Origin: a virus
Lineage: Duplodnaviria > Heunggongvirae > Uroviricota > Caudoviricetes
Reading direction: 5' to 3' (one strand)
Length of the DNA stretch: 27,571 nucleotides
IMG/VR virus record: IMGVR_UViG_2617271072_000003
Part shown: positions 3,206 to 27,571 of the stretch, one piece after another
Layout: the number at the start of each line of letters is the position of its first letter
Position numbering within the stretch: the stretch's first letter is position 1
Position numbers and translations under genes: made by a program
The notes under the pieces: generated by a model
Database searches by the model: none
Seen by the model: only the letters and a program-made list of their open reading frames with translations
What the model was told of the DNA's origin: nothing

Positions 3206-4258
3206 ATGAAGAATACTGTAAAAATAAACAGTGTTGATTTAATCAACGCTGATTGCCTGCATTTTATTCAGTCCCTGCCTGATGACTCCATTGATCTGAT
3301 TGTTACCGATCCGCCGTACTTCAAAGTGAAGCCCAACGGCTGGGACAATCAGTGGAAAGGGGACGAAGATTACCTGAAGTGGCTGGACCACTGTCTGGCC
3401 CAGTTCTGGCGGGTACTGAAACCAGCCGGAAGCCTTTACCTGTTCTGTGGACATCGCCTGGCATCTGATATCGAGATCATGATGCGTGAACGTTTCAACG
3501 TTCTTAACCATATCATCTGGGCGAAGCCGTCCGGACGATGGAACGGGTGTAATAAAGAAAGCCTGCGGGCATATTTCCCCGCTACAGAGCGCGTTCTGTT
3601 TGCTGAACATTACCAGGGGCCATATCGCGGCAAAAGTGACGATTATGCGGCAAAAGAAAGGGAACTCAAACAGCACATAATGGCACCGCTGATTTCGTAT
3701 TTCAGGGATGCTCGTGCCGAACTGGGTATAACGGCAAAACAGATTGCCGAAGCCACTGGTAAGAAAAATATGGTTTCCCACTGGTTTGGTGCCAGTCAGT
3801 GGCAGTTGCCGAATGAGGCTGACTACCGGAAGTTGCAGGCACTGTTTTCCCGTATAGCGGCAGAGAAATTTCAGGAACAACAACTGGAACAACCACACCA
3901 CCAGCTGGTGGCATCTTATGATTCACTGAATCGCAAATATTCTGAATTGCTGGATGAGTTTAAAACTCTCCGGCGCTATTTCTCCGTATCAGTTTCCGTG
4001 CCTTATACCGACGTCTGGACGCATAAACCCGTTCAGTTCTACCCGGGTAAACATCCGTGTGAGAAGCCTGCGGATATGCTCCGGCAAATAATCAGTGCCA
4101 GTAGTCGACAAGGCGATCTGGTTGCTGATTTCTTTATGGGATCCGGTTCCACAATAAAAGCAGCAATGGCGCTGGGGCGTCGGGCCTTAGGTGTTGAGCT
4201 TGAGTCAGAGCGGTTTAACCAGACAGTGAAAGAGATAAACGAGCTGGTGGGGAAATAA
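3206..4258 (+). CDS. DNA N6-adenine methyltransferase (beta-class, orphan)
   Basis: 350-aa ORF; catalytic DPPY motif near the N-terminus (IVTDPPYF) and AdoMet-binding FxGxG near the C-terminus (DFFMGSGST); no adjacent restriction endonuclease ORF. Confidence 0.85.
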
Positions 4259-4264
4259 TCTGGT

Positions 4265-4286
4265 GGCCACGTCAGGTGGCCTTTTT
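4265..4286 (+). terminator. intrinsic terminator downstream of the methyltransferase
   Basis: ggccac (4265-4270) / loop gtcag / gtggcc (4276-4281) then TTTTT (4282-4286). Confidence 0.5.
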
Positions 4287-4325
4287 ATTTCCATTACACA
4301 GCACCCGCATCTGCGAGGTGGGGTT

Positions 4326-4541
4326 ATGAAATCCATGGATAAGTTAACAACGGGTGTCGCCTATGGCACCTCAGCAGGTAGTGCCGGGTACTGGTTTTTA
4401 CAGTTGCTCGATAAAGTCACGCCCTCACAGTGGGCGGCAATAGGTGTGCTGGGTAGTCTGGTATTTGGCCTGCTGACGTACCTGACAAACCTTTATTTCA
4501 AGATTAAAGAAGATAAGCGCAAGGCTGCGAGAGGTGAATAA
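4326..4541 (+). CDS. S: class II holin / pinholin (phage 21 S21-like), dual-start motif
   Basis: 71 aa from ATG 4326 within ORF 4263..4541; [26 protein letters not shown]... resembles S21 (recollection); Met1-Lys-Ser-Met4 dual start; GAGGTG upstream. Confidence 0.85.
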
Positions 4542-7630: not shown

Positions 7631-11321
<3,691 letters not shown>

Positions 11322-11341
<20 letters not shown>

Positions 11342-12641
11342 TCTCCCGCATATTGCCAGCATGGCTTTTAATGAGCCGCTGATGCTTGAACCCGCCTATG
11401 CGCGGGTTTTCTTTTGTGCGCTTGCAGGCCAGCTTGGGATCAGTCGCCTGACGGATGCAGTATCCGGCGACAGCCTGACTGCCGGAGAGGCACCCGCGGC
11501 GCTGGCGTTATCCGGTGATGATGACGGACCACGACAGGCCCGCAGTTATCAGGTCATGAACGGCATCGCCGTGCTGCCGGTGTCCGGTACGCTGGTCAGC
11601 CGGACGCGGGCGCTGCAGCCGTATTCGGGAATGACCGGTTACAACGGCATTATCGCCCGTCTGCAACAGGCTGCCAGCGATCCGATGGTGGACGGCATTC
11701 TGCTCGATATGGACACACCGGGCGGGATGGTGGCGGGAGCATTTGACTGTGCTGACATCATCGCCCGTGTGCGTGACATAAAGCCGGTATGGGCGCTGGC
11801 CAACGACATGAACTGCAGTGCAGGTCAGCTGCTTGCCAGCGCCGCCTCCCGGCGTCTGGTCACGCAGACCGCCCGGACAGGCTCCATCGGCGTCATGATG
11901 GCTCACAGTAATTACGGCGCTGCGCTGGAGAAACAGGGCGTGGAAATCACGCTGATTTACAGCGGCAGCCATAAGGTGGATGGCAACCCCTACAGCCATC
12001 TACCGGGTGATGTCCGGGAGACACTGCAGTCCCGGATGGATGCAACCCGCCGGATGTTTGCGCAGAAGGTGTCGGCATATACCGGCCTGTCCGTGCAGGC
12101 TGTGCTGGATACCGAGGCTGCAGTGTACAGCGGTCAGGAGGCCATTGATGCCGGACTGGCTGATGAACTTGTCAACAGCACCGATGCGATCACCGTTATG
12201 CGTGATGCACTGGATGCACGTAAATCCCGTCTCTCAGGAGGGCGAATGACCAAAGAGACTCAATCAACAACTGTTTCAGCCACTGCTTCGCAGGCTGACG
12301 TTACTGACGTGGTGCAAGCGACGGAGGGCGAAAACGCCAGCGCGGCGCAGCCGGACGTGAACGCGCAGATCACCGCTGCGGTTGCGGCAGAAAACAGCCG
12401 CATTATGGGGATCCTCAACTGTGAGGAGGCTCACGGACGCGAAGAACAGGCACGTGTGCTGGCCGAAACCCCCGGTATGACCGTGGAAACGGCCCGCCGC
12501 ATTCTGGCAGCTGCACCACAGAGTGCACAGGCGCGCAGTGACACTGCGCTGGATCGTCTGATGCAGGGGGCACCGGCACCACTGGCTGCAGGTAACCCGG
12601 CATCTGATGCCGTTAACGATTTGCTGAACACACCAGTGTAA
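11322..12641 (+). CDS. C: capsid assembly protease gpC
   Basis: GTG start at 11322 (VTAELRNLPHIASMAF...), 439 aa; ORF track's 11187 start is an upstream extension overlapping B. Confidence 0.93.
12036..12641 (+). CDS. nu3: scaffolding protein Nu3 (in-frame internal start within C)
   Basis: Internal ATG at 12036 (MDATRRMFAQKVSAYTGLSVQ...) in the C frame, as in lambda. Confidence 0.6.
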   Translation: MDATRRMFAQKVSAYTGLSVQAVLDTEAAVYSGQEAIDAGLADELVNSTDAITVMRDALDARKSRLSGGRMTKETQSTTVSATASQADVTDVVQATEGENASAAQPDVNAQITAAVAAENSRIMGILNCEEAHGREEQARVLAETPGMTVETARRILAAAPQSAQARSDTALDRLMQGAPAPLAAGNPASDAVNDLLNTPV

Positions 12642-12650
12642 GGGATGTTT

Positions 12651-12983
12651 ATGACGAGCAAAGAAACCTTTACCCATTACCAGCCGCTGGGCAACAGTGA
12701 CCCGGCACATACGGCAACCGCGCCCGGCGGATTGAGTGCGAAAGCGCCTGCAATGACCCCGCTGATGCCGGATACCTCCACCCGTAAGCTGGTTGCGTGG
12801 GATGGCACCACCGACGGTACTGCCGTTGGCATTCTGGCGGTTGATGCTGACCAGACCAGCACCACGCTGACGTTCTACAAGTCCGGCACGTTCCGTTATG
12901 AGGATGTGCTCTGGCCGGAGGCTGCCAGCGACGAGACGAAAAAACGGACCGCGTTTGCCGGAACGGCAATCAGCATCGTTTAA
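12651..12983 (+). CDS. D: head decoration protein gpD
   Basis: 110 aa from ATG 12651 ([12 protein letters not shown]...); matches lambda D. Confidence 0.95.
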
Positions 12984-13004
12984 CCTTACCCTTCATCACT
13001 AAAG

Positions 13005-13025
13005 GCCGCCTGTGCGGCTTTTTTT
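13005..13025 (+). terminator. hairpin plus T-run between D and E
   Basis: gccgc (13005-13009) / loop ctgt / gcggc (13014-13018) followed by T7 (13019-13025). Confidence 0.4.
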
Positions 13026-13037
13026 ACGGGATTTTTT

Positions 13038-14063
13038 ATGTCGATGTACACAACCGCCCAGCTGCTGGCGGCAAATGAGCAGAAATTTAAGTTTGATCCG
13101 CTGTTTCTGCGTCTCTTTTTCCGTGAGAGCTATCCCTTCACCACGGAGAAAGTCTATCTCTCACAAATTCCGGGACTGGTAAACATGGCGCTGTACGTTT
13201 CGCCGATTGTTTCCGGTGAGGTTATCCGTTCCCGTGGCGGCTCCACCTCTGAATTTACGCCGGGATATGTCAAACCCAAGCATGAGGTGAATCCGCAGAT
13301 GACCCTGCGTCGCCTGCCGGATGAAGATCCGCAGAATCTGGCGGACCCGGCTTACCGCCGCCGTCGCATCATCATGCAGAACATGCGAGACGAAGAGCTG
13401 GCCATTGCTCAGGTCGAAGAGATGCAGGCAGTTTCTGCTGTGCTTAAGGGCAAATACACCATGACCGGTGAAGCCTTCGATCCGGTTGAGGTGGATATGG
13501 GCCGCAGTGCGGCGAACAACATCACACAGTCCGGTGGTACGGAGTGGAGCAAGCGTGACAAGTCCACGTATGACCCGACCGACGATATCGAAGCCTATGC
13601 GCTGAACGCCAGCGGCGTGGTGAATATCATCGTGTTTGATCCGAAAGGCTGGGCGCTGTTCCGTTCCTTCAAAGCCGTCAAGGAGAAGCTGGATACCCGT
13701 CGCGGCTCTCATTCCGAGCTGGAGACAGCGGTAAAAGACCTGGGCGAAGCGGTGTCCTATAAGGGGATGTATGGCGATACGGCGATCGTCGTGTATTCCG
13801 GACAGTACGTGGAAAACGACGTCAAAAAGAACTTCCTGCCGGACAACACGATGGTGCTGGGGAACACTCAGGCACGCGGTCTGCGCACCTATGGCTGCAT
13901 TCAGGATGCGGACGCACAGCGCGAAGGTATTAACGCCTCTGCCCGCTACCCGAAAAACTGGGTGACCACCGGCGATCCGGCGCGTGAGTTCACCATGATT
14001 CAGTCAGCACCGCTGATGCTGCTGGCTGATCCTGATGCGTTCGTGTCCGTACAACTGGCGTAA
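13038..14063 (+). CDS. E: major capsid protein gpE
   Basis: 341-aa ORF; MSMYTTAQLLAANEQKFKFDPLFLRLFF... matches lambda E. Confidence 0.97.
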   Translation: MSMYTTAQLLAANEQKFKFDPLFLRLFFRESYPFTTEKVYLSQIPGLVNMALYVSPIVSGEVIRSRGGSTSEFTPGYVKPKHEVNPQMTLRRLPDEDPQNLADPAYRRRRIIMQNMRDEELAIAQVEEMQAVSAVLKGKYTMTGEAFDPVEVDMGRSAANNITQSGGTEWSKRDKSTYDPTDDIEAYALNASGVVNIIVFDPKGWALFRSFKAVKEKLDTRRGSHSELETAVKDLGEAVSYKGMYGDTAIVVYSGQYVENDVKKNFLPDNTMVLGNTQARGLRTYGCIQDADAQREGINASARYPKNWVTTGDPAREFTMIQSAPLMLLADPDAFVSVQLA

Positions 14064-14104
14064 TCATGGCCCTTCGGGGCCATTTTCTCTCTGTGGAGGA
14101 GTCC

Positions 14105-14500
14105 ATGACGAAAGATGAACTGATTGCCCGTCTTCAGGTGCTGGGTGAGCAACTGAACCGTGATGTCAGCCTGACGGGGACGAAAGAAGAACTGGTGCTC
14201 CGTGTGGCAGAGCTGGAAGAGGAGCTTGATGACACGGATGACGCTGCCGGTCAGGACACATCTGTCAGCCCGGAAAATGCGCTGACCGGACATGAAAATG
14301 AGGTGGTATCAGCGCAGCCGGATACCGTGATTGATACGGCTGCTCTGGTCACGGTCGTGGCACTGGTGACGCTGCATACTGATGCACTTCACGCCACGCG
14401 GGATGAGCCTGTGGCATTTGTGCTGCCGGGAACGGCGTTTCGTGTCTCTGCCGGTGTGGCAGCCGAAATGACAGAACATGGCCTGGCCAGAATGCAATAA
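14105..14500 (+). CDS. FI: DNA packaging protein gpFI
   Basis: ATG 14105 (MTKDELIARL...) within ORF 14066..14500; lambda FI-like. Confidence 0.88.
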   Translation: MTKDELIARLQVLGEQLNRDVSLTGTKEELVLRVAELEEELDDTDDAAGQDTSVSPENALTGHENEVVSAQPDTVIDTAALVTVVALVTLHTDALHATRDEPVAFVLPGTAFRVSAGVAAEMTEHGLARMQ

Positions 14501-14511
14501 CGGGAGGCGCT

Positions 14512-14865
14512 GTGGCTGATTCCGATAACCTGTTCGATGCTGCCATTGCCCGCGCCGATGAAACGATACGCGGGTACATGGGAACGTCAGCCACCATGAC
14601 ATCCGGTGAGCTGTCCGGTGCTGTGATACGTGGTGTTTTTGATGACCCTGAAAATATCAGCTATGCCGGACAGGGGGTGCGCGTTGAAGGCTCCAGCCCG
14701 TCCCTGTTTGTCCGGACTGATGATGTGCGGCAGCTGCGGCGTGGAGACACACTGACCATCGGCGAGGAAAACTTCTGGGTGGACCGGATTTCGCCGGATG
14801 ATGGCGGAAGCTGTCATCTCTGGCTTGGGCGGGGCGTACCGCCTGCCGTTAACCGTCGCCGCTGA
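14512..14865 (+). CDS. FII: head completion protein gpFII
   Basis: 117-aa ORF; MADSDNLFDAAIARADETIRGYMG... matches lambda FII. Confidence 0.95.
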   Translation: MADSDNLFDAAIARADETIRGYMGTSATMTSGELSGAVIRGVFDDPENISYAGQGVRVEGSSPSLFVRTDDVRQLRRGDTLTIGEENFWVDRISPDDGGSCHLWLGRGVPPAVNRRR

Positions 14866-14876
14866 AGGGGGGATGT

Positions 14877-15457
14877 ATGGCCATAAAAGGTCTTGAGCAG
14901 GCCGTTGAAAACCTCAGTCGTATCAGCAAAACGGCGGTGCCCGGTGCGTCAGCAATGGCCATTAACCGCGTTGCGTCATCCGCGATATCGCAGTCTGCGT
15001 CACAAGGTTGCCCGTGAGACAAGGGTACGCCGGAAACTGGTAAAGGAAAGGGCCAGGCTGAAAAGGGCCACGGTTAAAAATCCGCAGGCCAGAATCAGGG
15101 TTAACCGGGGGGATTTGCCCGTAATCAAGCTGGGTAACGCGCGGGTTGTCCTGTCCCGACGCAGGCGTCGTAAAAAGGGGCAGCGTTCATCCCTGAAAGG
15201 TGGCGGCAGCGTGCTTGTGGTGGGAAACCGTCGTATTCCCGGCGCGTTTTATTCAGCAACTGAAAAATGGCCGCTGGCATGTCATGCAGCGTGTGGCCGG
15301 GAAAAACCGTTACCCCATTGATGTGGTGAAAATCCCGATGGCGGTGCCGCTGACCACGGCGTTTAAACAGAATATTGAGCGGATACGGCGTGAGCGTCTT
15401 CCGAAAGAGCTGGGCTATGCGCTGCAGCATCAACTGAGGATGGTAATAAAGCGATGA
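14877..15457 (+). pseudogene. Z: tail completion protein gpZ, frame interrupted twice
   Basis: ATG 14877 MAIKGLEQAVENLSRISK...SQSASQ then stop at 15015-15017; middle of gpZ in ORF 14893..15321; C-terminus (FIQQLKNGRWHVMQ...MVIKR) in ORF 15200..15457. Shift points near 15004-15005 and the T4 run 15247-15250. Confidence 0.85.
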
Positions 15458-15852
15458 AACATACTGAACTCCGTGCAGCCGTACTGGATGCACTGGAGAA
15501 GCATGACACCGGGGCGACGTTTTTTTTGATGGTCCGCCCCGCTGTTTTTGATGAGGCGGATTTTCCGGCAGTTGCCGTTTATCTCACCGGCGCTGAATAC
15601 ACGGGCGAAGAGCTGGACAGCGATACCTGGCAGGCGGAGCTGCATATCGAAGTTTTCCTGCCTGCTCAGGTGCCGGATTCAGAGCTGGATGCGTGGATGG
15701 AGTCCCGGATTTATCCGGTGATGAGCGATATCCCGGCACCGTCAGATTTGATCACCAGTATGGTGGCCAGTGGCTATGACTACCGGCGCGACGATGATGC
15801 GGGCCTGTGGAGTTCTGCCGATCTGACTTATGTCATTACCTATGAAATGTGA
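15454..15852 (+). CDS. U: tail terminator protein gpU
   Basis: 132-aa ORF overlapping the Z stop; lambda U-like; contains a T8 run at 15520-15527. Confidence 0.9.
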
Positions 15853-15859
15853 GGACGAT

Positions 15860-16600
15860 ATGCCTGTACCAAATCCAGCAATACCGGTGAAAGGTGCCGG
15901 AACCACCCTGTGGGTTTATAACGGGAGCGGCGACCCTTATGCGAACCCGCTTTCAGACGTTGACTGGTCGCGTCTGGCTAAAGTTAAAGACCTGACGCCC
16001 GGCGAACTGACCGCTGAGTCCTATGACGACAGTTATCTCGATGATGAAGATGCGGACTGGACCGCGACCGGGCAGGGGCAGAAATCTGCCGGAGATACCA
16101 GCTTCACGCTGGCGTGGATGCCCGGAGAGCAGGGGCAGCAGGCGCTGCTGGCGTGGTTTAATGAAGGGGATACCCGTGCCTATAAAATCCGCTTCCCGAA
16201 CGGCACGGTCGATGTGTTCCGTGGCTGGGTCAGCAGTATCGGTAAGGCGGTGACGGCGAAGGAAGTGATCACCCGTACGGTGAAGGTCACCAATGTGGGC
16301 CGTCCGTCAATGGCAGAAGATCGCAGTACGGTGACGGCGGCAACCGGCATGACCGTGACGCCTGCCAGCACTTCGGTGGTGAAAGGGCAGAGCACCACGC
16401 TGACCGTGGCATTCCAGCCGGAAGGCGCAACCGACAAGAGCTTCCGTGCGGTGTCTGCGGATAAAACAAAAGCCACCGTGTCGGTCAGTGGTATGACCAT
16501 CACCGTGAAAGGTGTTGCTGCAGGCAAGGTCAACATTCCGGTTGTATCCGGTAATGGTGAACTTGCTGTGGTTGCAGAAATCACCGTCACCGACAGTTAA
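15860..16600 (+). CDS. V: major tail tube protein gpV
   Basis: ATG 15860 ([20 protein letters not shown]...) with GAGGA upstream; C-terminal Ig-like region; lambda V-like. Confidence 0.95.
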
Positions 16601-16615
16601 TCCGGAGAGTCAGCG

Positions 16616-17038
16616 ATGTTCCTGAAAACCGAATCATTTGAATATAACGGTGTGAGCGTCACGCTTTCTGAACTGTCAGCCCTGCAGCGAATTGAGCATC
16701 TCGCCCTGCTGAAACGACAGGCAGAACAGGCGGGATCCAGTCTCAATCGACAGGTGAGCGTGGAAGATCTCGTCAGAACCGGTGCTTTTCTGGTGGCGAT
16801 GTCCCTGTGGCATAGCCATCCGCAGAAGACAAAGATGCCGTCCATGAATGAAGCCGTTAAACAAATTGAGCAGGAAGTGCTTACCACCTGGCCCACAGAG
16901 GCAATTTCTCATGCTGAAAACGTGGTGTACCGGCTGTCCGGTATGTATGAGTTTGTGGTGAATGATGCTCCTGAACAGACAGAGGACGCCGGGCCTGCAG
17001 AGCCTGTTTCTGCGGGAAAGTGTTCGATGGTGAGCTGA
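16616..17038 (+). CDS. G: tail assembly chaperone gpG
   Basis: 140-aa ORF; lambda G-like; contains the slippery heptamer near its 3' end. Confidence 0.95.
   Translation: MFLKTESFEYNGVSVTLSELSALQRIEHLALLKRQAEQAGSSLNRQVSVEDLVRTGAFLVAMSLWHSHPQKTKMPSMNEAVKQIEQEVLTTWPTEAISHAENVVYRLSGMYEFVVNDAPEQTEDAGPAEPVSAGKCSMVS
17014..17020 (+). other. programmed -1 ribosomal frameshift site G GGA AAG (G to G-T fusion)
   Basis: GGGAAAG at 17014-17020 in the G frame; the -1 frame continues into the T ORF (17020..17454). Confidence 0.85.
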
Positions 17039-17454
17039 GTTTTGCCCTGAAACTGGCGCGAGAGATGGGGCGACCCGACTGGCGTGCCATGCTTGCCGGG
17101 ATGTCATCCACGGAGTATGCCGACTGGCACCGCTTTTACAGTACCCATTATTTTCATGATGTTCTGCTGGATATGCACTTTTCCGGGCTGACGTACACCG
17201 TGCTCAGCCTGTTTTTCAGCGATCCGGATATGCATCCGCTGGATTTCAGTCTGCTGAACCGGCGTGAGGCTGACGAAGAGCCTGAAGATGATGTGCTGAT
17301 GCAGAAAGCGGCAGGGCTTGCCGGAGGCGTCCGCTTTGGCCCGGACGGGAATGAAGTTATCCCCGCTTCCCCGGATGTGGCGGACATGACGGAGGATGAC
17401 GTAATGCTGATGACAGTATCAGAAGGGATCGCAGGAGGAGTCCGGTATGGCTGA
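17020..17454 (+). CDS. T: tail assembly protein T (expressed as G-T fusion via -1 frameshift)
   Basis: Open frame 17020..17454 with no independent RBS or ATG, overlapping the 3' end of G; lambda T-like. Confidence 0.88.
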   Translation: MFDGELSFALKLAREMGRPDWRAMLAGMSSTEYADWHRFYSTHYFHDVLLDMHFSGLTYTVLSLFFSDPDMHPLDFSLLNRREADEEPEDDVLMQKAAGLAGGVRFGPDGNEVIPASPDVADMTEDDVMLMTVSEGIAGGVRYG

Positions 17455-20026
17455 ACCGGTAGGCGATCTGGTCGTTGATTTAAGTCTGGATGCGGCCAGA
17501 TTTGACGAGCAGATGGCCAGAGTCAGGCGTCATTTTTCCGGTACGGAAACTGATGCGAAAAAAACAGCGGCAGTCGTTGAACAGTCGCTGAGCCGACAGG
17601 CGCTGGCTGCACAGAAAGCGGGGATTTCCGTCGGGCAGTATAAAGCCGCCATGCGTATGCTGCCTGCACAGTTCACCGACGTGGCCACGCAGCTTGCAGG
17701 CGGGCAAAGCCCGTGGCTGATCCTGCTGCAACAGGGGGGTCAGGTTAAGGACTCCTTCGGCGGGATGATCCCCATGTTCAGGGGGCTTGCCGGTGCGATC
17801 ACCCTGCCGATGGTGGGGGCCACCTCGCTGGCGGTGGCGACCGGTGCGCTGGCGTATGCCTGGTATCAGGGCAACTCAACCCTGTCCGATTTCAACAAAA
17901 CGCTGGTCCTTTCCGGCAATCAGGCGGGACTGACGGCAGATCGTATGCTGGTCCTGTCCAGAGCCGGGCAGGCGGCAGGGCTGACGTTTAACCAGACCAG
18001 CGAGTCACTGACGGCGCTGGTGAATGCCGGTGTGCGTGGTGGTGAGCAGTTTGAGGCGATCAGCCAGAGTGTGGCGCGTTTCTCCTCTGCATCCGGCGTG
18101 GAGGTGGACAAGGTCGCTGAAGCCTTCGGGAAGCTGACCACAGACCCGACGTCGGGACTGACAGCGATGGCACGTCAGTTCCATAACGTGACGGCGGAGC
18201 AGATTGCGTATGTTGCTCAGTTGCAGCGTTCCGGAGATGAAGCCGGGGCATTGCAGGCGGCGAACGAGGCCGCAACGAAAGGGTTTGATGACCAGACCCG
18301 CCGCCTGAAAGAGAACATGGGCACGCTGGAGACCTGGGCAGACAGGACAGCACGGGCATTCAAATCCATGTGGGATTCGGTGCTGGATATTGGTCGCCCG
18401 GACACTGCCCAGGTAATGCTGGAGAAAGCAGAAAAGGCTTTTGATGAGGCGGACAAAAAATGGCAGTGGTATCAGAGCCGGAGCCACCGGCGCGGTAAAA
18501 CCTCAGCATTTCTTGCCAATCTCCGGGGAGCATGGGAGGACAGAGCGAATGCGCAACTTGGGCTTTCAGCCGCCACGTTGCAGGCCGATCTTGAAAAGGC
18601 CAGAGAGATGGCAGCAAAGGACTGGGCCGAGTCTGAGGCATCACGGCTGAAATATACCGAAGAGGCGCAGAAGGCTTACGAACGGCTGCAGACGCCGCTG
18701 GAGAAATATACCGCCCGTCAGGAAGAACTGAACAAGGCACTGAAAGACGGGAAAATCCTGCAGGCGGATTACAACACGCTGATGGCGGCGGCGAAAAAGG
18801 ATTATGAAGCGACGCTGAAAAAGCCGAAACAGTCCGGCGTGAAGGTGTCTGCGGGCGATCGTCAGGAAGACAGTGCTCATGCTGCCCTGCTGATGCTTCA
18901 GACAGAACTCCGGACGCTGGAGAAGCATGCCGGAGCGAATGAGAAAATCAGCCAGCAGCGCCGGGATTTGTGGAAGGCAGAAAGTCAGTTCGCGGTACTG
19001 GAGGAGGCGGCGCAACGTCGTCAGTTGTCTGCACAGGAGAAATCCCTGCTGGCGCATAAAGATGAGACGCTGGAGTACAAACGCCAGCTGGCTGCACTTG
19101 GCGACAAGGTTACGTATCAGGAGCGCCTGAACGCGCTGGCGCAGCAGGCGGATAAATTCGCACAGCAGCAACGGGCAAAACGGGCCGCCATTGATGCGAA
19201 AAGCCGGGGGCTGACTGACCGGCAGGCAGAACGGGAAGCCACGGAACAGCGCCTGAAGGAACAGTATGGCGATAATCCGCTGGCGCTGAATAACGTCATG
19301 TCAGAGCAGAAAAAAGACCTGGGCGGCTGAAGACCAGCTTCGCGGGAGCTGGATGGCAGGCCTGAAGTCCGGCTGGAGTGAGTGGGAAGAGAGCGCCACG
19401 GACAGTATGTCGCAGGTTAAAAGTGCAGCCACGCAGACCTTTGATGGTATTGCACAGAATATGGCGGCGATGCTGACCGGCAGTGAGCAGAACTGGCGCA
19501 GCTTCACCCGTTCCGTGCTGTCCATGATGACAGAAATTCTGCTTAAGCAGGCAATGGTGGGGATTGTCGGGAGTATCGGCAGCGCCATTGGCGGTGCTGC
19601 CAGTGGTGGAGCATCCGCGTCAGGCGGTACAGCCATTCAGGCCGCTGCGGCGAAATTCCATTTTGCGACCGGGGGATTTACGGGAACCGGCGGCAAATAT
19701 GAGCCAGCGGGGATTGTTCACCGTGGTGAATTTGTCTTCACGAAGGAGGCAACCAGCCGGATTGGTGTCGGCAACCTGTACCGCCTGATGAGGGGCTATG
19801 CGGAAGGTGGTTATGTGGCGGTGCCGGAAGTCCGGCGCAGATGCGGCGGGCTGAAGGCATTAATTTTAATCAGAACAATCACGTGGTGATTCAGAACGAC
19901 GGTACGAATGGTCTGCCAGGTCCACAGATGATGAAGGCAGTGTATGACATGGCCCGCAAGGGTGCCCGTGATGAAATTCAGACACAGATGCGTGATGGTG
20001 GCCTGTTCTCCGGAGGTGGACGATGA
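17447..20026 (+). pseudogene. H: tail tape-measure protein gpH, frame interrupted twice
   Basis: ORF 17447..19330 (627 aa, MAEPVGDLVVDLSLDAARF...) stops at 19328-19330; gpH continues in frame 0 (ORF 19353..19889) and returns to the original frame in ORF 19841..20026 (...MRDGGLFSGGGR). The two shifts compensate over 2580 nt, but stop codons intervene. Confidence 0.85.
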
Positions 20027-20352
20027 AAACCTTCCGCTGGAAAGTGAAACCCGGTATGGATGTGGCTTCGGCCCCTTCTGTAAGAAAGGTGCGCTTTGGT
20101 GATGGCTATTCCCAGCGAGCGCCTGCCGGGCTGAATGCCAACCTGAAAACGTACAGCGTGACGCTTTCTGTCCCCCGTGAGGAGGCCACGGTACTGGAGT
20201 CGTTTCTGGAAGAGCACGGGGGCTGGAAAGCCTTTCTGTGGACGCCGCCTTATGAGTGGCGGCAGATAAAGGTGACCTGCGCAAAATGGTCGTCGCGGGT
20301 CAGTATGCTGCGTGTTGAGTTCAGCGCAGAGTTTGAACAGGTGGTGAACTGA
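20023..20352 (+). CDS. M: tail tip protein gpM
   Basis: 109-aa ORF; MKTFRWKVKPGMDVAS... matches lambda M. Confidence 0.95.
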   Translation: MKTFRWKVKPGMDVASAPSVRKVRFGDGYSQRAPAGLNANLKTYSVTLSVPREEATVLESFLEEHGGWKAFLWTPPYEWRQIKVTCAKWSSRVSMLRVEFSAEFEQVVN

Positions 20353-21050
20353 TGCAGGATATCCGGCAGGAAACACTGAATGAATGCACCCGTGCGGAGC
20401 AGTCGGCCAGCGTGGTGCTCTGGGAAATCGACCTGACAGAGGTCGGTGGAGAACGTTATTTTTTCTGTAATGAGCAGAACGAAAAAGGTGAGCCGGTCAC
20501 CTGGCAGGGGCGACAGTATCAGCCGTATCCCATTCAGGGGAGCGGTTTTGAACTGAATGGCAAAGGCACCAGTATGCGCCCCACGCTGACGGTTTCTAAC
20601 CTGTACGGTATGGTCACCGGGATGGCGGAAGATATGCAGAGTCTGGTCGGCGGAACGGTGGTCCGGCGTAAGGTTTACGCCCGTTTTCTGGATGCGGTGA
20701 ACTTCGTCAACGGAAACAGTTACGCCGATCCGGAGCAGGAGGTGATCAGCCGCTGGCGCATTGAGCAGTGCAGCGAACTGAGCGCGGTGAGTGCCTCCTT
20801 TGTACTGTCCACGCCGACGGAAACGGATGGCGCTGTTTTTCCGGGACGTATCATGCTGGCCAACACCTGCACCTGGACCTATCGCGGTGACGAGTGCGGT
20901 TATAGCGGTCCGGCTGTCGCGGATGAATATGACCAGCCAACGTCCGATATCACGAAGGATAAATGCAGCAAATGCCTGAGCGGTTGTAAGTTCCGCAATA
21001 ACGTCGGCAACTTTGGCGGCTTCCTTTCCATTAACAAACTTTCGCAGTAA
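20352..21050 (+). CDS. L: tail tip protein gpL
   Basis: 232-aa ORF; lambda L-like with Cys-rich C-terminus. Confidence 0.95.
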   Translation: MQDIRQETLNECTRAEQSASVVLWEIDLTEVGGERYFFCNEQNEKGEPVTWQGRQYQPYPIQGSGFELNGKGTSMRPTLTVSNLYGMVTGMAEDMQSLVGGTVVRRKVYARFLDAVNFVNGNSYADPEQEVISRWRIEQCSELSAVSASFVLSTPTETDGAVFPGRIMLANTCTWTYRGDECGYSGPAVADEYDQPTSDITKDKCSKCLSGCKFRNNVGNFGGFLSINKLSQ

Positions 21051-21055
21051 ATCCC

Positions 21056-21799
21056 ATGACACAGACAGAATCAGCGATTCTGGCGCACGCCCGGCGATGT
21101 GCGCCAGCGGAGTCGTGCGGCTTCGTGGTAAGCACGCCGGAGGGGGAAAGATATTTTCCCTGCGTGAATATCTCCGGTGAGCCGGAGGCGTATTTCCGTA
21201 TGTCGCCGGAAGACTGGCTGCAGGCAGAAATGCAGGGTGAGATTGTGGCGCTGGTCCACAGCCACCCCGGTGGTCTGCCCTGGCTGAGTGAGGCCGACCG
21301 GCGGCTGCAGGTGCAGAGTGATTTGCCGTGGTGGCTGGTCTGCCGGGGGACGATTCATAAGTTCCGCTGTGTGCCGCATCTCACCGGGCGGCGCTTTGAG
21401 CACGGTGTGACGGACTGTTACACACTGTTCCGGGATGCTTATCATCTGGCGGGGATTGAGATGCCGGACTTTTATCGTGAGGATGACTGGTGGCGTAACG
21501 GCCAGAATCTCTATCTGGATAATCTGGAGGCGACGGGGCTGTATCAGGTGCCGTTGTCAGCGGCACAGCCGGGCGATGTGCTGCTGTGCTGTTTTGGTTC
21601 ATCAGTGCCGAATCACGCCGCAATTTACTGCGGCGACGGCGAGCTGCTGCACCATATTCCTGAACAACTGAGCAAACGAGAGAGGTACACCGACAAATGG
21701 CAGCGACGCACACACTCCCTCTGGCGTCACCGGGCATGGCGCGCATCTGCCTTTACGGGGATTTACAACGATTTGGTCGCCGCATCGACCTTCGTGTGA
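21056..21799 (+). CDS. K: tail tip assembly protein gpK (MPN/JAMM plus NlpC/P60-like)
   Basis: 247-aa ORF; JAMM-like HSHPGG...SEAD motif; the classical 199-aa lambda K start corresponds to internal Met49 (ATG 21200); 3' end overlaps I. Confidence 0.88.
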   Translation: MTQTESAILAHARRCAPAESCGFVVSTPEGERYFPCVNISGEPEAYFRMSPEDWLQAEMQGEIVALVHSHPGGLPWLSEADRRLQVQSDLPWWLVCRGTIHKFRCVPHLTGRRFEHGVTDCYTLFRDAYHLAGIEMPDFYREDDWWRNGQNLYLDNLEATGLYQVPLSAAQPGDVLLCCFGSSVPNHAAIYCGDGELLHHIPEQLSKRERYTDKWQRRTHSLWRHRAWRASAFTGIYNDLVAASTFV

Positions 21800-22368
21800 A
21801 AACGGGGGCTGAAGCCATCCGGGCACTGGCCACACAGCTCCCGGCGTTTCGTCAGAAACTGAGCGACGGCTGGTATCAGGTACGGATTGCCGGGCGGGAC
21901 GTCAGCACGTCCGGGTTAACGGCGCAGTTACATGAGACTCTGCCTGATGGCGCTGTGATTCATATTGTTCCCAGAGTCGCCGGGGCCAAGTCAGGTGGCG
22001 TATTCCAGATTGTCCTGGGGGCTGCCGCCATTGCCGGATCATTCTTTACCGCCGGAGCCACCCTTGCAGCATGGGGGGCAGCCATTGGGACCGGTGGTAT
22101 GACCGGCATCCTGTTTTCTCTCGGTGCCAGTATGGTGCTCGGTGGTGTGGCGCAGATGCTGGCACCGAAAGCCAGAACTCCCCGTACACAGACAACGGAT
22201 AACGGTAAGCAGAACACCTATTTCTCCTCACTGGATAACATGGTTGCCCAGGGCAATGTTCTGCCTGTTCTGTACGGGGAAATGCGCGTGGGGTCTCGCG
22301 TGGTTTCTCAGGAGATCAGCACGGCAGACGAAGGGGACGGTGGTCAGGTTGTGGTGATTGGTCGCTGA
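21697..22368 (+). CDS. I: tail tip assembly protein gpI
   Basis: 223-aa ORF; ubiquitin-like N-terminus and Gly-rich hydrophobic segment; lambda I-like. Confidence 0.95.
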   Translation: MAATHTLPLASPGMARICLYGDLQRFGRRIDLRVKTGAEAIRALATQLPAFRQKLSDGWYQVRIAGRDVSTSGLTAQLHETLPDGAVIHIVPRVAGAKSGGVFQIVLGAAAIAGSFFTAGATLAAWGAAIGTGGMTGILFSLGASMVLGGVAQMLAPKARTPRTQTTDNGKQNTYFSSLDNMVAQGNVLPVLYGEMRVGSRVVSQEISTADEGDGGQVVVIGR

Positions 22369-22428
22369 TGCAAAATGTTTTATGTGAAACCGCCTGCGGG
22401 CGGTTTTGTCATTTATGGAGCGTGAGGA

Positions 22429-25400
22429 ATGGGTAAAGGCAGCAGTAAGGGGCATACCCCGCGCGAAGCGAAGGACAACCTGAAGTCCACGCAGCTGCTG
22501 AGTGTGATCGATGCCATCAGCGAAGGGCCGGTTGAAGGTCCGGTGGATGGATTAAAAAGCGTGCTGCTGAACAGTACGCCGGTGCTGGACACTGAGGGGA
22601 ATACCAACATCTCCGGTGTCACGGTGGTGTTCCGTGCCGGTGAGCAGGAGCAGACACCGCCGGAGGGGTTTGAATCCTCCGGCTCCGAGACGGTGCTGGG
22701 TACGGAAGTGAAATATGACACGCCGATCACCCGCACCATTACGTCTGCAAACATCGACCGTCTGCGCTTTACCTTCGGTGTGCAGGCACTGGTGGAAACC
22801 ACCTCAAAGGGGGACCGGAATCCGTCGGAAGTCCGCCTGCTGGTTCAGATACAGCGTAACGGTGGCTGGGTGACGGAAAAAGACATCACCATTAAGGGCA
22901 AAACCACCTCGCAGTATCTGGCCTCGGTGGTGGTGGATAACCTGCCGCCGCGCCCGTTTAATATCCGGATGCGCAGGATGACGCCGGACAGCACCACAGA
23001 CCAGCTGCAGAACAAAACGCTCTGGTCGTCATACACCGAAATCATCGATGTGAAACAGTGCTACCCGAACACGGCACTGGTCGGCGTGCAGGTGGATTCG
23101 GAGCAGTTCGGCAGCCAGCAGGTGAGCCGTAATTATCATCTGCGCGGGCGCATTCTGCAGGTGCCGTCGAACTATAACCCGCAGACGCGGCAATACAGCG
23201 GTATCTGGGACGGAACGTTTAAGCCAGCATACAGCAACAACATGGCCTGGTGTATGTGGGATATGCTGACCCATCCGCGCTACGGCATGGGGAAACGTCT
23301 TGGTGCAGCGGATGTAGATAAATGGGCGCTGTATGTCATCGGCCAGTACTGCGACCAGTCGGTGCCGGACGGCTTTGGCGGCACGGAGCCGCGCATCACC
23401 TGTAATGCGTACCTGACCACACAGCGCAAGGCGTGGGATGTGCTCAGTGATTTCTGCTCGGCGATGCGCTGTATGCCGGTATGGAACGGGCAGACGCTGA
23501 TGTTCGTGCAGGACCGACCATCAGATAAGGTGTGGACCTATAACCGCAGTAATGTGGTGATGCCGGATGATGGTGCGCCGTTCCGCTACAGCTTCAGCGC
23601 CCTGAAGGACCGCCATAATGCCGTTGAGGTGAACTGGATTGACCCGAACAACGGCTGGGAGACGGCGACAGAGCTTGTTGAAGATACTCAGGCCATTGCC
23701 CGTTACGGTCGTAACGTCACGAAGATGGATGCCTTTGGCTGTACCAGCCGGGGGCAGGCGCACCGCGCCGGGCTGTGGCTGATTAAAACGGAACTGCTGG
23801 AAACGCAGACCGTGGACTTCAGCGTGGGTGCGGAAGGGCTTCGCCATGTACCGGGGGATGTCATTGAAATCTGCGATGATGACTATGCGGGTATCAGCAT
23901 CGGCGGGCGCGTGCTGGCGGTGAACAGCCAGACCCGGACGCTGACGCTCGACCGTGAAATCACGCTGCCATCCTCCGGTACCACGCTGATAAGCCTGGTT
24001 GACGGAAGTGGCAATCCGGTCAGCGTGGAGGTCCAGTCCGTCACCGACGGCGTGAAGGTAAAAGTGAGCCGTGTTCCTGACGGCGTTGCCGGATACAGCG
24101 TGTGGGGGCTGAAGCTGCCGACGCTGCGCCAGCGCCTGTTCCGCTGCGTGAGTATCCGTGAGAACGACGACGGCACGTATGCCATCACCGCCGTGCAGCA
24201 TGTACCCGAAAAAGAAGCCATCGTGGATAACGGGGCGCACTTTGACGGCGACCTGAGCGGCACGGTGAATGGCGTCACGCCGCCCGCGGTGCAGCACCTG
24301 ACTGCCGAAGTCACCGCAGACAGCGGGGAATATCAGGTGCTGGCGCGCTGGGACACGCCGAAGGTGGTGAAGGGGGTGAGCTTCCTGCTTCGCCTGACCG
24401 TGGCAGCGGACGATGGCAGTGAGCGGCTGGTCAGTACGGCCAGGACGACGGAAACCACATACCGCTTCACGCAACTGGCGCTGGGGAACTACAGGCTGAC
24501 TGTCCGGGCGGTAAATGCGTGGGGACAGCAGGGCGAACCGGCATCGGTATCGTTCCGGATTGCCGCACCGGCAGCGCCGTCTCGGATTGAGCTGACACCG
24601 GGCTATTTTCAGATAACCGCCACGCCGCATCTTGCGGTTTATGATCCGACGGTACAATTTGAGTTCTGGTTCTCGGAAACGCGGATTACCGATATCAGGC
24701 AGGTTGAAACCACAGCCCGCTACCTTGGCACGGGGCTGTACTGGATAGCCGCCAGTATCAATATCAAACCGGGCCATGATTATTACTTTTATATCCGCAG
24801 TGTGAACACCGTTGGCAAATCGGCATTCGTGGAGGCTGTCGGTCAGCCGAGTGATGATGCATCAGGCTATCTGGATTTTTTCAAAGGCGAGATAGGGAAA
24901 ACCCATCTGGCTCAGGAGCTGTGGACGCAGATTGATAACGGTCAGCTTGCGCCTGACCTGACTGAAATCAGGACGTCCATAACGGATGTCAGCAATGAAA
25001 TAACACAGACCGTCAATAAGAAACTGGAAGACCAGAGTGCAGCGATCCAGCAGATACAGAAGGTTCAGGTTGATACAAATAATAACCTGAACAGCATGTG
25101 GGCAGTGAAGCTGCAGCAGATGCAGGACGGACGCCTTTATATTGCGGGTATCGGTGCCGGTATTGAGAACACCCCTGACGGCATGCAGAGTCAGGTGCTG
25201 CTGGCAGCAGACAGGATTGCGATGATTAATCCTGCGAATGGCAACACAAAGCCGATGTTTGTTGGTCAGGGCGATCAGATATTCATGAATGAAGTGTTCC
25301 TGAAACGCCTGACGGCCCCCACCATTACCAGCGGCGGTAATCCTCCGGCATTTTCCCTGACATCAGACGGGAGACTGACGGCGAAAAATGCGGATATCAG

Positions 25401-25926
25401 TGGCAGTGTGAATGCGAACTCAGGAACGCTCAACAATGTCACGATTAACCAGAACTGTACGATTAAGGGCATGCTGGAGGCGACCCAGGTCAGAGGAGAT
25501 TTCGTTAAAGCTGTATCAAAAGCCTTCCCGAAAAAAGTCGGTACGTGGGGTAACACGGAAACACCAAACGGTACGGTTACAGTCACCATCAGCGATGATC
25601 ATAACTTTGACCGCCAGATTATTATTCCGCCCATTATTTTTAACGGTATAGCGTATGACGATCCGGGGAGCGGAAATAACCCAGGAGGCACGCGATACAC
25701 GGGTTATGGTTTTGAAGTTCGCAAAAACGGCGTATTAATCGCATCCAGAGAAACTAAAGGGGCCATTCCCGGTAGTTACAGTGCAGTTATTGATATGCCG
25801 AGTGGCAGGGGAAGCGTCACTCTGGAGTTTAAGATTTTCCAGAAAGGCAATCAGGGGGCAGGCAATATCACCGACTGTACGGTGATTGTGACCAAAAAAG
25901 CCGCTTCCGGCATCAGTATTCGTTGA
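22429..25926 (+). CDS. J: central tail fibre / host specificity protein gpJ
   Basis: 1165-aa ORF; N-terminal ~850 aa lambda J-like; the C-terminal ~300 aa differ from lambda J as I recall it. Confidence 0.95.
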
Positions 25927-25948
25927 AATATTTATAACCCCAATAAAG

Positions 25949-25972
25949 GGCGTCAGGAATGACGCCTTTTTT
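25949..25972 (+). terminator. intrinsic terminator downstream of J
   Basis: ggcgtca (25949-25955) / loop ggaa / tgacgcc (25960-25966) followed by T6 (25967-25972). Confidence 0.6.
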
Positions 25973-25996
25973 ATTGCAGAAAAGCGAGAGGTAATT

Positions 25997-26596
25997 ATGC
26001 GTAAAGTTTGTGCAGCAATTTTGTCCGCAGCCATTTGTCTGGCCGTATCCGGTGCGCCTGCATGGGCGTCTGAACATCAGTCCACGCTGAGCGCGGGGTA
26101 TCTTCATGCCTCGACGAACGTCCCCGGCAGCGATGATCTGAACGGGATTAACGTGAAATACCGTTATGAGTTTACGGACACACTGGGGCTGGTGACGTCA
26201 TTCAGCTATGCAGGAGACAAGAATCGCCAGCTGACCCGTTACAGCGATACCCGCTGGCATGAAGATTCCGTTCGTAACCGCTGGTTCAGCGTAATGGCGG
26301 GGCCGTCTGTGCGCGTGAATGAATGGTTCAGCGCGTATGCGATGGCGGGTGTAGCTTACAGCCGTGTGTCGACTTTCTCCGGGGATTATCTTCGCGTAAC
26401 TGACAACAAGGGGAAAAAGCACGATGTGCTGACCGGAAGTGATGACGGTCGCCACAGCAACACGTCTCTGGCGTGGGGGGCTGGCGTGCAGTTTAACCCG
26501 ACCGAATCCGTGGCCATTGATATTGCTTATGAAGGCTCCGGCAGTGGTGACTGGCGCACTGACGGTTTCATCGTGGGTGTCGGTTATAAATTCTGA
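25997..26596 (+). CDS. lom: outer membrane protein Lom (Ail/Lom family beta-barrel)
   Basis: 199-aa ORF with signal peptide MRKVCAAILSAAICLAVSGAPAWA, C-terminal ...VGVGYKF; lambda Lom-like. Confidence 0.95.
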   Translation: MRKVCAAILSAAICLAVSGAPAWASEHQSTLSAGYLHASTNVPGSDDLNGINVKYRYEFTDTLGLVTSFSYAGDKNRQLTRYSDTRWHEDSVRNRWFSVMAGPSVRVNEWFSAYAMAGVAYSRVSTFSGDYLRVTDNKGKKHDVLTGSDDGRHSNTSLAWGAGVQFNPTESVAIDIAYEGSGSGDWRTDGFIVGVGYKF

Positions 26597-26622
26597 TTAG
26601 CCAGGTAACACAGTGTTATGAC

Positions 26623-26650
26623 AGCCCGCCGGTTCAGGCGGGCTTTTTTT
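26623..26650 (+). terminator. intrinsic terminator downstream of lom
   Basis: agcccgcc (26623-26630) / loop ggttca / ggcgggct (26637-26644) followed by T7 (26644-26650). Confidence 0.6.
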
Positions 26651-26661
26651 GTGGGGTGAAT

Positions 26662-27571
26662 ATGGCAGTAAAGATTTCAGGTGTACTGAAAGACGGCACA
26701 GGAAAACCGGTACAGAACTGCACAATCCAGCTGAAAGCAAAACGTAACAGCACCACGGTGGTGGTGAACACGCTGGCCTCAGAAAATCCGGATGAAGCCG
26801 GGCGTACAGCATGGACGTTGAGTACGGGCAGTACAGCGTTATTCTGTTGGTGGAGGGATTCCCGCCGTCACATGCCGGGACCATCACCGTGTATGAAGAT
26901 TCCCGACCCGGTACGCTGAATGATTTTCTCGGTGCCATGACGGAGGATGATGCCCGTCCTGAGGCACTGCGCCGTTTTGAACTGATGGTGGAAGAGGTGG
27001 CGCGTAACGCGTCCGCGGTGGCACAGAACACGGCAGCCGCGAAGAAGTCAGCCAGCGATGCCAGCACATCAGCCCGTGAGGCGGCAACCCATGCGACTGA
27101 TGCTGCAGGCTCAGCACGCGCAGCCAGCACGTCAGCCGGACAGGCCGCGTCGTCGGCTCAGTCAGCATCTTCCAGCGCAGGAACGGCATCAACAAAGGCC
27201 AGTGAAGCATCGAAAAGTGCTGCTGCTGCAGAGTCCTCAAAAAGCGCGGCAGCTACCAGTGCCGGTGCGGCGAAAACGTCAGAAACGAATGCGGCAGCGT
27301 CACAACAATCAGCAGCCACTTCTGCATCCGCCGCGACCACGAAGGCGTCAGAAGCAGCCACCTCAGCCCGGGATGCGGCGGCCTCAAAAGAGGCAGCGAA
27401 ATCATCAGAAACGAACGCATCATCAAGCGCCAGTAGTGCCGCTTCCTCGGCAACGGCGGCAGGCAATTCCGCGAAGGCGGCAAAGACGTCTGAGACAAAC
27501 GCCAGGTCTTCTGAAACGGCAGCGGGACAGAGCGCCTCGGCTGCGGCAGGCTCAAAAACAGCGGCTGCGTC
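26662..27571 (+). pseudogene. stf: side tail fibre Stf, N-terminal part (frame interrupted near 26805; runs off the window end)
   Basis: ATG 26662 MAVKISGVLKDGTGKPVQNCTIQLKAK...DEAGR, then frame lost and stop at 26917-26919; the Stf-like sequence (Ala/Ser-rich, KTSETNA repeats) is open in the other frame from about 26811 to 27571 (hand-translated). Confidence 0.8.

Follow-up and report, generated by a model that had tools for sequence, protein, structure and literature searches.

The stretch of DNA analysed here (27,571 nucleotides, called the window in this text) belongs to a lambda-like Escherichia coli prophage and represents its late region. It carries rusA, Q, an accessory region and the S-R-Rz lysis genes; these are followed by the terminase, the head genes and the tail genes, with J, lom and the 5' part of stf coming last. 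The gene order around J fits the arrangement ...H-M-L-K-I-J-lom-stf and is colinear with the annotations of PhiR34_1 and of the prophage in E. coli 13KWH46. The features on which the analysis depends are the following.

14877-15460: Z, frameshifted by indels at 15004, 15107 and 15247, as judged against 13KWH46 and PhiR34_1
17447-20026: H (tape-measure), with A6 for A5 at 19310 leading to a stop at 19330, and a -1 indel at 19817, as judged against the same two sequences
21697-22368: gene I, from the ORF listing, located 5' of J
22429-25926, + strand: gene J (tail tip attachment / central tail fibre protein), an intact ORF of 1165 aa in the ORF listing
22429-24836, + strand: conserved body of J, aa 1 to about 803, tail-tip cone and FNIII/Ig domains, lambda/434-like by block-wise alignment
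24837-25305, + strand: Module A, aa ~807-959, helical segment, longer by 28 residues, plus the upper straight fibre, delimited by alignments
25300-25428, + strand: conserved linker, aa 958-1000, delimited by amino acid alignment and overlapping Module A at its lower end and the 434-like DNA where this begins
25384-25926, + strand: Module B, 434-type distal fibre and receptor-binding domain (RBD), aa ~986-1165, with the RBD proper at aa ~1001-1165, delimited by alignment
25997-26596, + strand: lom (Ail/Lom outer-membrane beta-barrel), 434-type by amino acid alignment and lying inside the 434-like DNA block
26656-27571, + strand: 5' part of stf (side tail fibre gene), running off the window, identified by translation and by alignment to the stf of PhiR34_1 and 13KWH46

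Several observations concern the part of the window upstream of the tail genes. Q lies at 630-1010, and between it and the lysis genes three ORFs occupy the minus strand (1034-2664), in sequence without a match to PhiR34_1. For the largest of them (1726-2664, 312 aa), the hits are PDC-S42 (E=4e-32), a candidate defence family of PADLOC, and phrog_3243, a family of unknown function, and the other two (1453-1722 and 1034-1456) have no Pfam, PHROG or PADLOC family match; located downstream of Q, the segment could represent a defence or moron cassette. Directly upstream of the holin gene (4263-4541), the plus strand encodes a 350-aa N6/N4 DNA methyltransferase (3206-4258), recognised by Pfam PF01555 (E=8e-42) and by the model for Type II MTases in PADLOC (E=2e-151). 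The window revealed no restriction partner for it, and therefore it looks like an orphan phage methylase. In the area of W and the portal start, nine extra bases (AT plus T7, a longer T-run) are present at 9980-9990 relative to PhiR34_1. A tRNA scan of the window found none.

The protein encoded by J is a member of the lambda gpJ family of tip attachment / central tail fibre proteins. All six J-specific Pfam domains (FNIII-A_GpJ, Phage-tail_3, Ig_J, Ig_J_second, Phage_Tail_Tip and Ig_GpJ_C) are found above their gathering thresholds, with scores of 89-144 bits against cut-offs of 22-29, and the last of them (PF12421) covers aa 1029-1164 (E=4e-25). The initial annotation had correctly given the length of the ORF as 1165 aa compared with 1132 aa for lambda J, as the ORF listing and the lambda record show. 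Overall, the two proteins are 82% identical (BLASTP), and this value averages over regions that differ strongly. In the block-wise alignment, 37-40 residues per 40 are the same in lambda, and likewise in 434, over aa 1-800, and identity to lambda J over aa 1-805 amounts to 97-99%. Subsequently, identity to lambda falls to 22/40 in aa 801-840 and 5/40 in aa 841-880, recovers through 18/40 (aa 881-920) and 30/40 (aa 921-960) to 38/40 in aa 961-1000, and falls again to 9-21 per 40 in aa 1001-1165. The same edge is visible in the DNA, where there are zero differences from lambda at 24735-24836 and dense differences from 24837 onwards, with identity dropping from ~98% to 18-46% per 100 nt. The GC content changes as well, from ~0.60-0.65 in the body of J to 0.47-0.52 in the C-terminal 1.1 kb. 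The divergent region had been placed from 24850 onwards by the initial annotation, and both this start and the motif quoted for it (aa 805 onwards) are right, with the DNA differences beginning slightly earlier, at 24837. The description of J as lambda-like at its N-terminal part also holds, although for about 805 aa rather than the first 850 or so; the divergent C-terminal part comprises about 360 aa instead of about 300, and consists of two divergent modules around a conserved stretch of ~43 aa (41/43). The 33 residues by which the protein exceeds lambda J are accounted for by 28 in the helical segment and a net five in the RBD.

Module A aligns to two segments of lambda J, the three-helix segment AHS (residues 809-861) and the central straight fibre (CSF), a beta-prism of which it covers the upper part. 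The identity is equally low to lambda (67/152 aa) and to 434 (68/152 aa), 44% in each case, whereas lambda and 434 are identical to one another across this region; Module A is thus neither lambda-type nor 434-type. Its close relatives are found in Lambda_4B5, ev017 and PPompW_699, at 95-99% amino acid identity, in phages whose RBDs are only 41-43% identical to that of the window. Among the phages compared, Module A is found with at least three RBD types. In a simple a/d heptad score, the helical segment has only 8-9 hydrophobic positions out of 16-28, which does not suffice to equate the 28-aa insertion with four heptads. An internal duplication was considered as the source of the 28 extra residues and rejected, as direct repeats of 12-15 nt occur only at chance level.

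The two divergent modules are separated by the linker (aa 958-1000), in which 41 of the 43 residues are identical to lambda (95%) and 40 to 434, and which is kept in all compared phages that carry either module. At 25306-25383, sites of the 4B5, lambda and 434 kinds are intermingled in the DNA as a fine-scale mosaic. This is the pattern expected of a recombination joint, and therefore the linker is likely to be the joint between Modules A and B.

Beyond the linker, the relationship changes to phage 434. From 25384 to the stop codon of J (25926, ~540 nt), just 12 nucleotides differ from 434, and in the RBD 160 of 165 amino acids are identical to 434 J (97%), compared with 64/169 for lambda J (38%). 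The five differing residues, given from the window to 434, are N1047D, R1127G, I1136V, Q1138H and G1143R; these substitutions could tune the recognition of OmpC variants. No close identity was found to the LamB-binding RBD of lambda (residues ~985-1132; 38%, with several indels) or to the RBD of the 4B5/ev017/A8 type (72/168, 43%). By its close identity over the whole length, the RBD of the window is assigned to the 434 type (h434). The swap of a host-range module, proposed by the initial annotation, is directly demonstrated by the abrupt drop in identity and by this near-identity to 434 as far as the stop codon, and the alignment to lambda revealed no high identity across the C-terminal domain that would speak against it.

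The 434-like DNA extends past the end of J. In blastn, an uninterrupted match to 434 spans 25095-27082 at 92.4%, so that it continues beyond the RBD through lom and into the first ~430 nt of stf. The lom product is identical to the Ail/PagC/OmpX protein of 434 at 193 of 199 residues (97%), and to lambda Lom at 93 of 207 (45%). Since the J RBD, lom and the start of stf lie in a single 434-like block, the RBD and lom seem to have been transferred as one piece. Two hairpins were observed in this part of the window. A short GC-rich hairpin at 25949-25966, 22 nt past the stop codon of J, is scored as a terminator on the minus strand only, and its position is that of the terminator annotated after J in the 434 record; the other, a terminator-like hairpin with a T-run, lies 3' of lom at 26623-26644.

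Taken together, these alignments indicate that homologous recombination has built the distal third of J out of two cassettes that can be exchanged, Modules A and B, a reading to which a probability of roughly 0.85 is assigned. The two modules assort independently among phages, which, like their boundaries, identities and abundance, is shown directly by the sequences. Module A occurs with other RBDs, as described above, and the reverse combination, a 434-type RBD with the short lambda-type helical segment, is carried by 434, mEp460_ev081, IdasGreatGrand and many Stx2c phages; the records with the short segment match only query positions 399-1077 of the 1077-nt region (24850-25926). The existence of two independently exchanged modules goes beyond what the initial annotation had described, as does the finding that the allele is common and already annotated.

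Three known kinds of J protein illustrate this modular relationship. The J of 434 (UMO75286.1; record OL657226; also present in lambda h434 imm21) is 91% identical overall and shares with the window both the RBD and the type of lom (97%), but its helical segment and upper fibre are of the short lambda type, where the window has a different module with 28 residues more. Conversely, Lambda_4B5 and ev017 have Module A in common with the window at 97-99% amino acid identity, and they carry, together with Stx2_95, another RBD class (43% identical to the window) that resembles the A8 RBD (A8 gpJ, PDB 9wca). The A8 RBD has been engineered into lambda to recognise O157 OmpC (bioRxiv 10.1101/2025.02.28.640725). 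Finally, the LamB-binding J of lambda (AAA96553.1; structures 8iyk/8xcj) has the same domain order and a 95% identical linker, and the trimeric fibre architecture and the triggering mechanism are presumably alike; its RBD (38%) and its helical/upper fibre module (44%, with 28 aa fewer than the window) are different, and LamB specificity is not expected for the window.

The complete C-terminal region is widely distributed. The 1077-nt region is 100% identical in Kati, PhiR34_1, PhiR42_1, PhiR68_2 and phiSTEC1575-Stx2k, and at least 99.8% identical in four further phage records. The J genes of these five phages and of ev243 and mEp332 represent the same allele (99.8-100% over the 1077-nt region); over the whole gene, such records (Kati, PhiR34_1, mEp332 etc.) are 96.6-97.6% identical, with scattered substitutions in the conserved body only. 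The gpJ of E. coli 13KWH46 (WP_001512628.1) is 100% identical to that of the window in both nucleotides and amino acids. Among 5426 complete E. coli genomes, 1164 cover at least 80% of the 1077-nt region at one place, and in 520 records the best match reaches at least 99% identity. In their annotations, the matching sequences are all called J, host-specificity or tail fibre proteins. Isolated plaque-forming phages contain the 1077-nt sequence unchanged, namely PhiR34_1, whose recorded host is K-12 MG1655, and others propagated on other E. coli hosts, and therefore the allele is functional in virions.

The state of the particular copy in the window has to be considered separately. Here, J could be a relic of a decaying prophage, serving as a recombination reservoir for host-range modules and not as a working adsorption protein. 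Compared with the 13KWH46 prophage, the 16.8 kb at 10745-27571 are 99.92% identical, and indels within this span break Z, H and stf; in stf, a T missing at 26805 relative to PhiR34_1 and 13KWH46 leads to a stop at 26919. The exact sequence of the window at 19250-19900, within H, is present in no complete E. coli genome of the collection, the best match being 99.5%. Next to such frameshifted Z, H and stf genes, the copy may currently yield no virions. However, the differences from 13KWH46 comprise ten small indels and two substitutions, and the indels fall mostly in homopolymer runs. Because indels outnumber substitutions in this way, which is the signature of sequencing error, the breaks in Z, H and stf are suggested to be homopolymer sequencing errors rather than decay. 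Moreover, J itself is intact, untouched by the indels and identical to the gpJ of 13KWH46. Decay of the prophage is therefore regarded as a possible but less favoured explanation, and it bears on the state of this copy and not on the nature of the J module.

With respect to the receptor, the evidence comes from phages that carry the same type of fibre tip. Lambda carrying the fibre gene of 434 binds OmpC, the 434 receptor (PMC11101478), and the J of 434 is described as targeting OmpC in a study of an EHEC phage (PMC12502783). Given the 97% identity of the RBD to that of 434 J, it is highly probable that the J of the window recognises OmpC rather than LamB, and the reading with the best support is a change of host range in which OmpC takes the place of LamB. 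The more general proposal of the initial annotation, that the receptor differs from LamB, is very probably correct on the same grounds. In the searchable literature, no receptor experiments on phages with exactly this J allele were found, nor was anything on receptors found in the literature on mEp332, PhiR34, Kati, phiSTEC1575, ev243, phi458 and Ayreon; a large receptor-screen preprint from 2026 deals with GpJ of the Drexlerviridae type and not with lambdoid J.

The way in which the fibre would act can be proposed by analogy with lambda. There, the J trimer shuts the tail tip and extends as the central fibre, and its distal RBD binds a trimeric porin; the binding is passed up the fibre and the helical segment, and the tip then opens (PMC11101478). 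In the J of the window, as in lambda, residues up to 805 build the tail-tip cone and the FNIII domains. In cassette A (aa ~807-959), a widespread variant with 28 more residues takes the place of the three-helix segment and of the upper beta-prism fibre, and cassette B (aa ~986-1165) is the RBD of phage 434 (h434). The trimer would dock its distal RBD on trimeric OmpC, in analogy to the solved lambda J-LamB complex, and the binding would be relayed via the straight fibre and the helical segment, leading to the opening of the tail tip and the ejection of DNA. The triggering mechanism is thus inferred to be that of lambda. By sequence, aa 865-1164 match the solved lambda J fibre structures 8xcj/8iyk with E about 1e-95. 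A single-sequence monomer AlphaFold2 model of aa 790-1165 has a mean pLDDT of 40.9, too low for structural use.

Alternatively, the five substitutions could have retargeted the 434-like RBD, either to another porin (OmpF, LamB) or to particular OmpC alleles only, in which case K-12 OmpC would be the wrong receptor. Single substitutions in J can add the use of OmpC/OmpF in phage 21 and lambda (PMC11336670), and the RBD of the window differs from that of 434 at five positions. In addition, OmpC is also used by several unrelated RBD classes of J, such as those of phi330 (PMC12502783) and of the engineered gpJ-A8/1A2 (bioRxiv 10.1101/2025.02.28.640725), so the fine specificity of the J RBD is plastic. 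Nevertheless, the 97% identity to 434 holds over the whole RBD, and the identical allele is present in phages grown on K-12 MG1655, which makes retargeting quite improbable. The weakest alternative, gradual divergence of an orthologous J without any exchange of cassettes, could appeal to the weaker divergence that grades over 25129-25428 (61-89% DNA identity) without a single sharp edge, but it is hardly credible against the abrupt left edge at 24836/24837, the near-identity to 434 that sets in at 25384, the different combinations of the two modules in other phages and the lower GC content of the C-terminal 1.1 kb.

Returning to the two-cassette assembly of J, a functional role of Module A can be discussed. 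In lambda J, the AHS and CSF undergo large rearrangements upon LamB binding, as observed by cryo-EM (PMC11101478). Because the lambda counterpart of Module A is the segment that rearranges most on LamB binding, and because Module A is freely combined with three or more RBD classes, it might be an independently exchanged functional module and more than a neutral variant, although this is rather unlikely. The same tentative reading would have it tune the reach of the central fibre, e.g., through O-antigen or capsule, or the relay of receptor binding to the opening of the tail tip. The sole under-described aspect of this J is that Module A, in its long version, is exchanged as a cassette of its own, and a functional consequence of this is doubtful.

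In other respects, the J of the window is real but ordinary, combining a well-known 434-type tip with a common, longer shaft segment. The h434 host-range allele has been in genetic use for decades. It is a classical genetic tool (PMC9119081). As this allele has long been used, and as many records of phages and of E. coli already contain the exact allele of the window, the finding is nothing new in kind; its use lies in annotation and phage engineering. For this family of prophages, it predicts the adsorption phenotype, which would be a dependence on OmpC and not on LamB, and the J described here shows cleanly, in a natural case, how host range is shuffled by means of two cassettes in lambdoid J genes.
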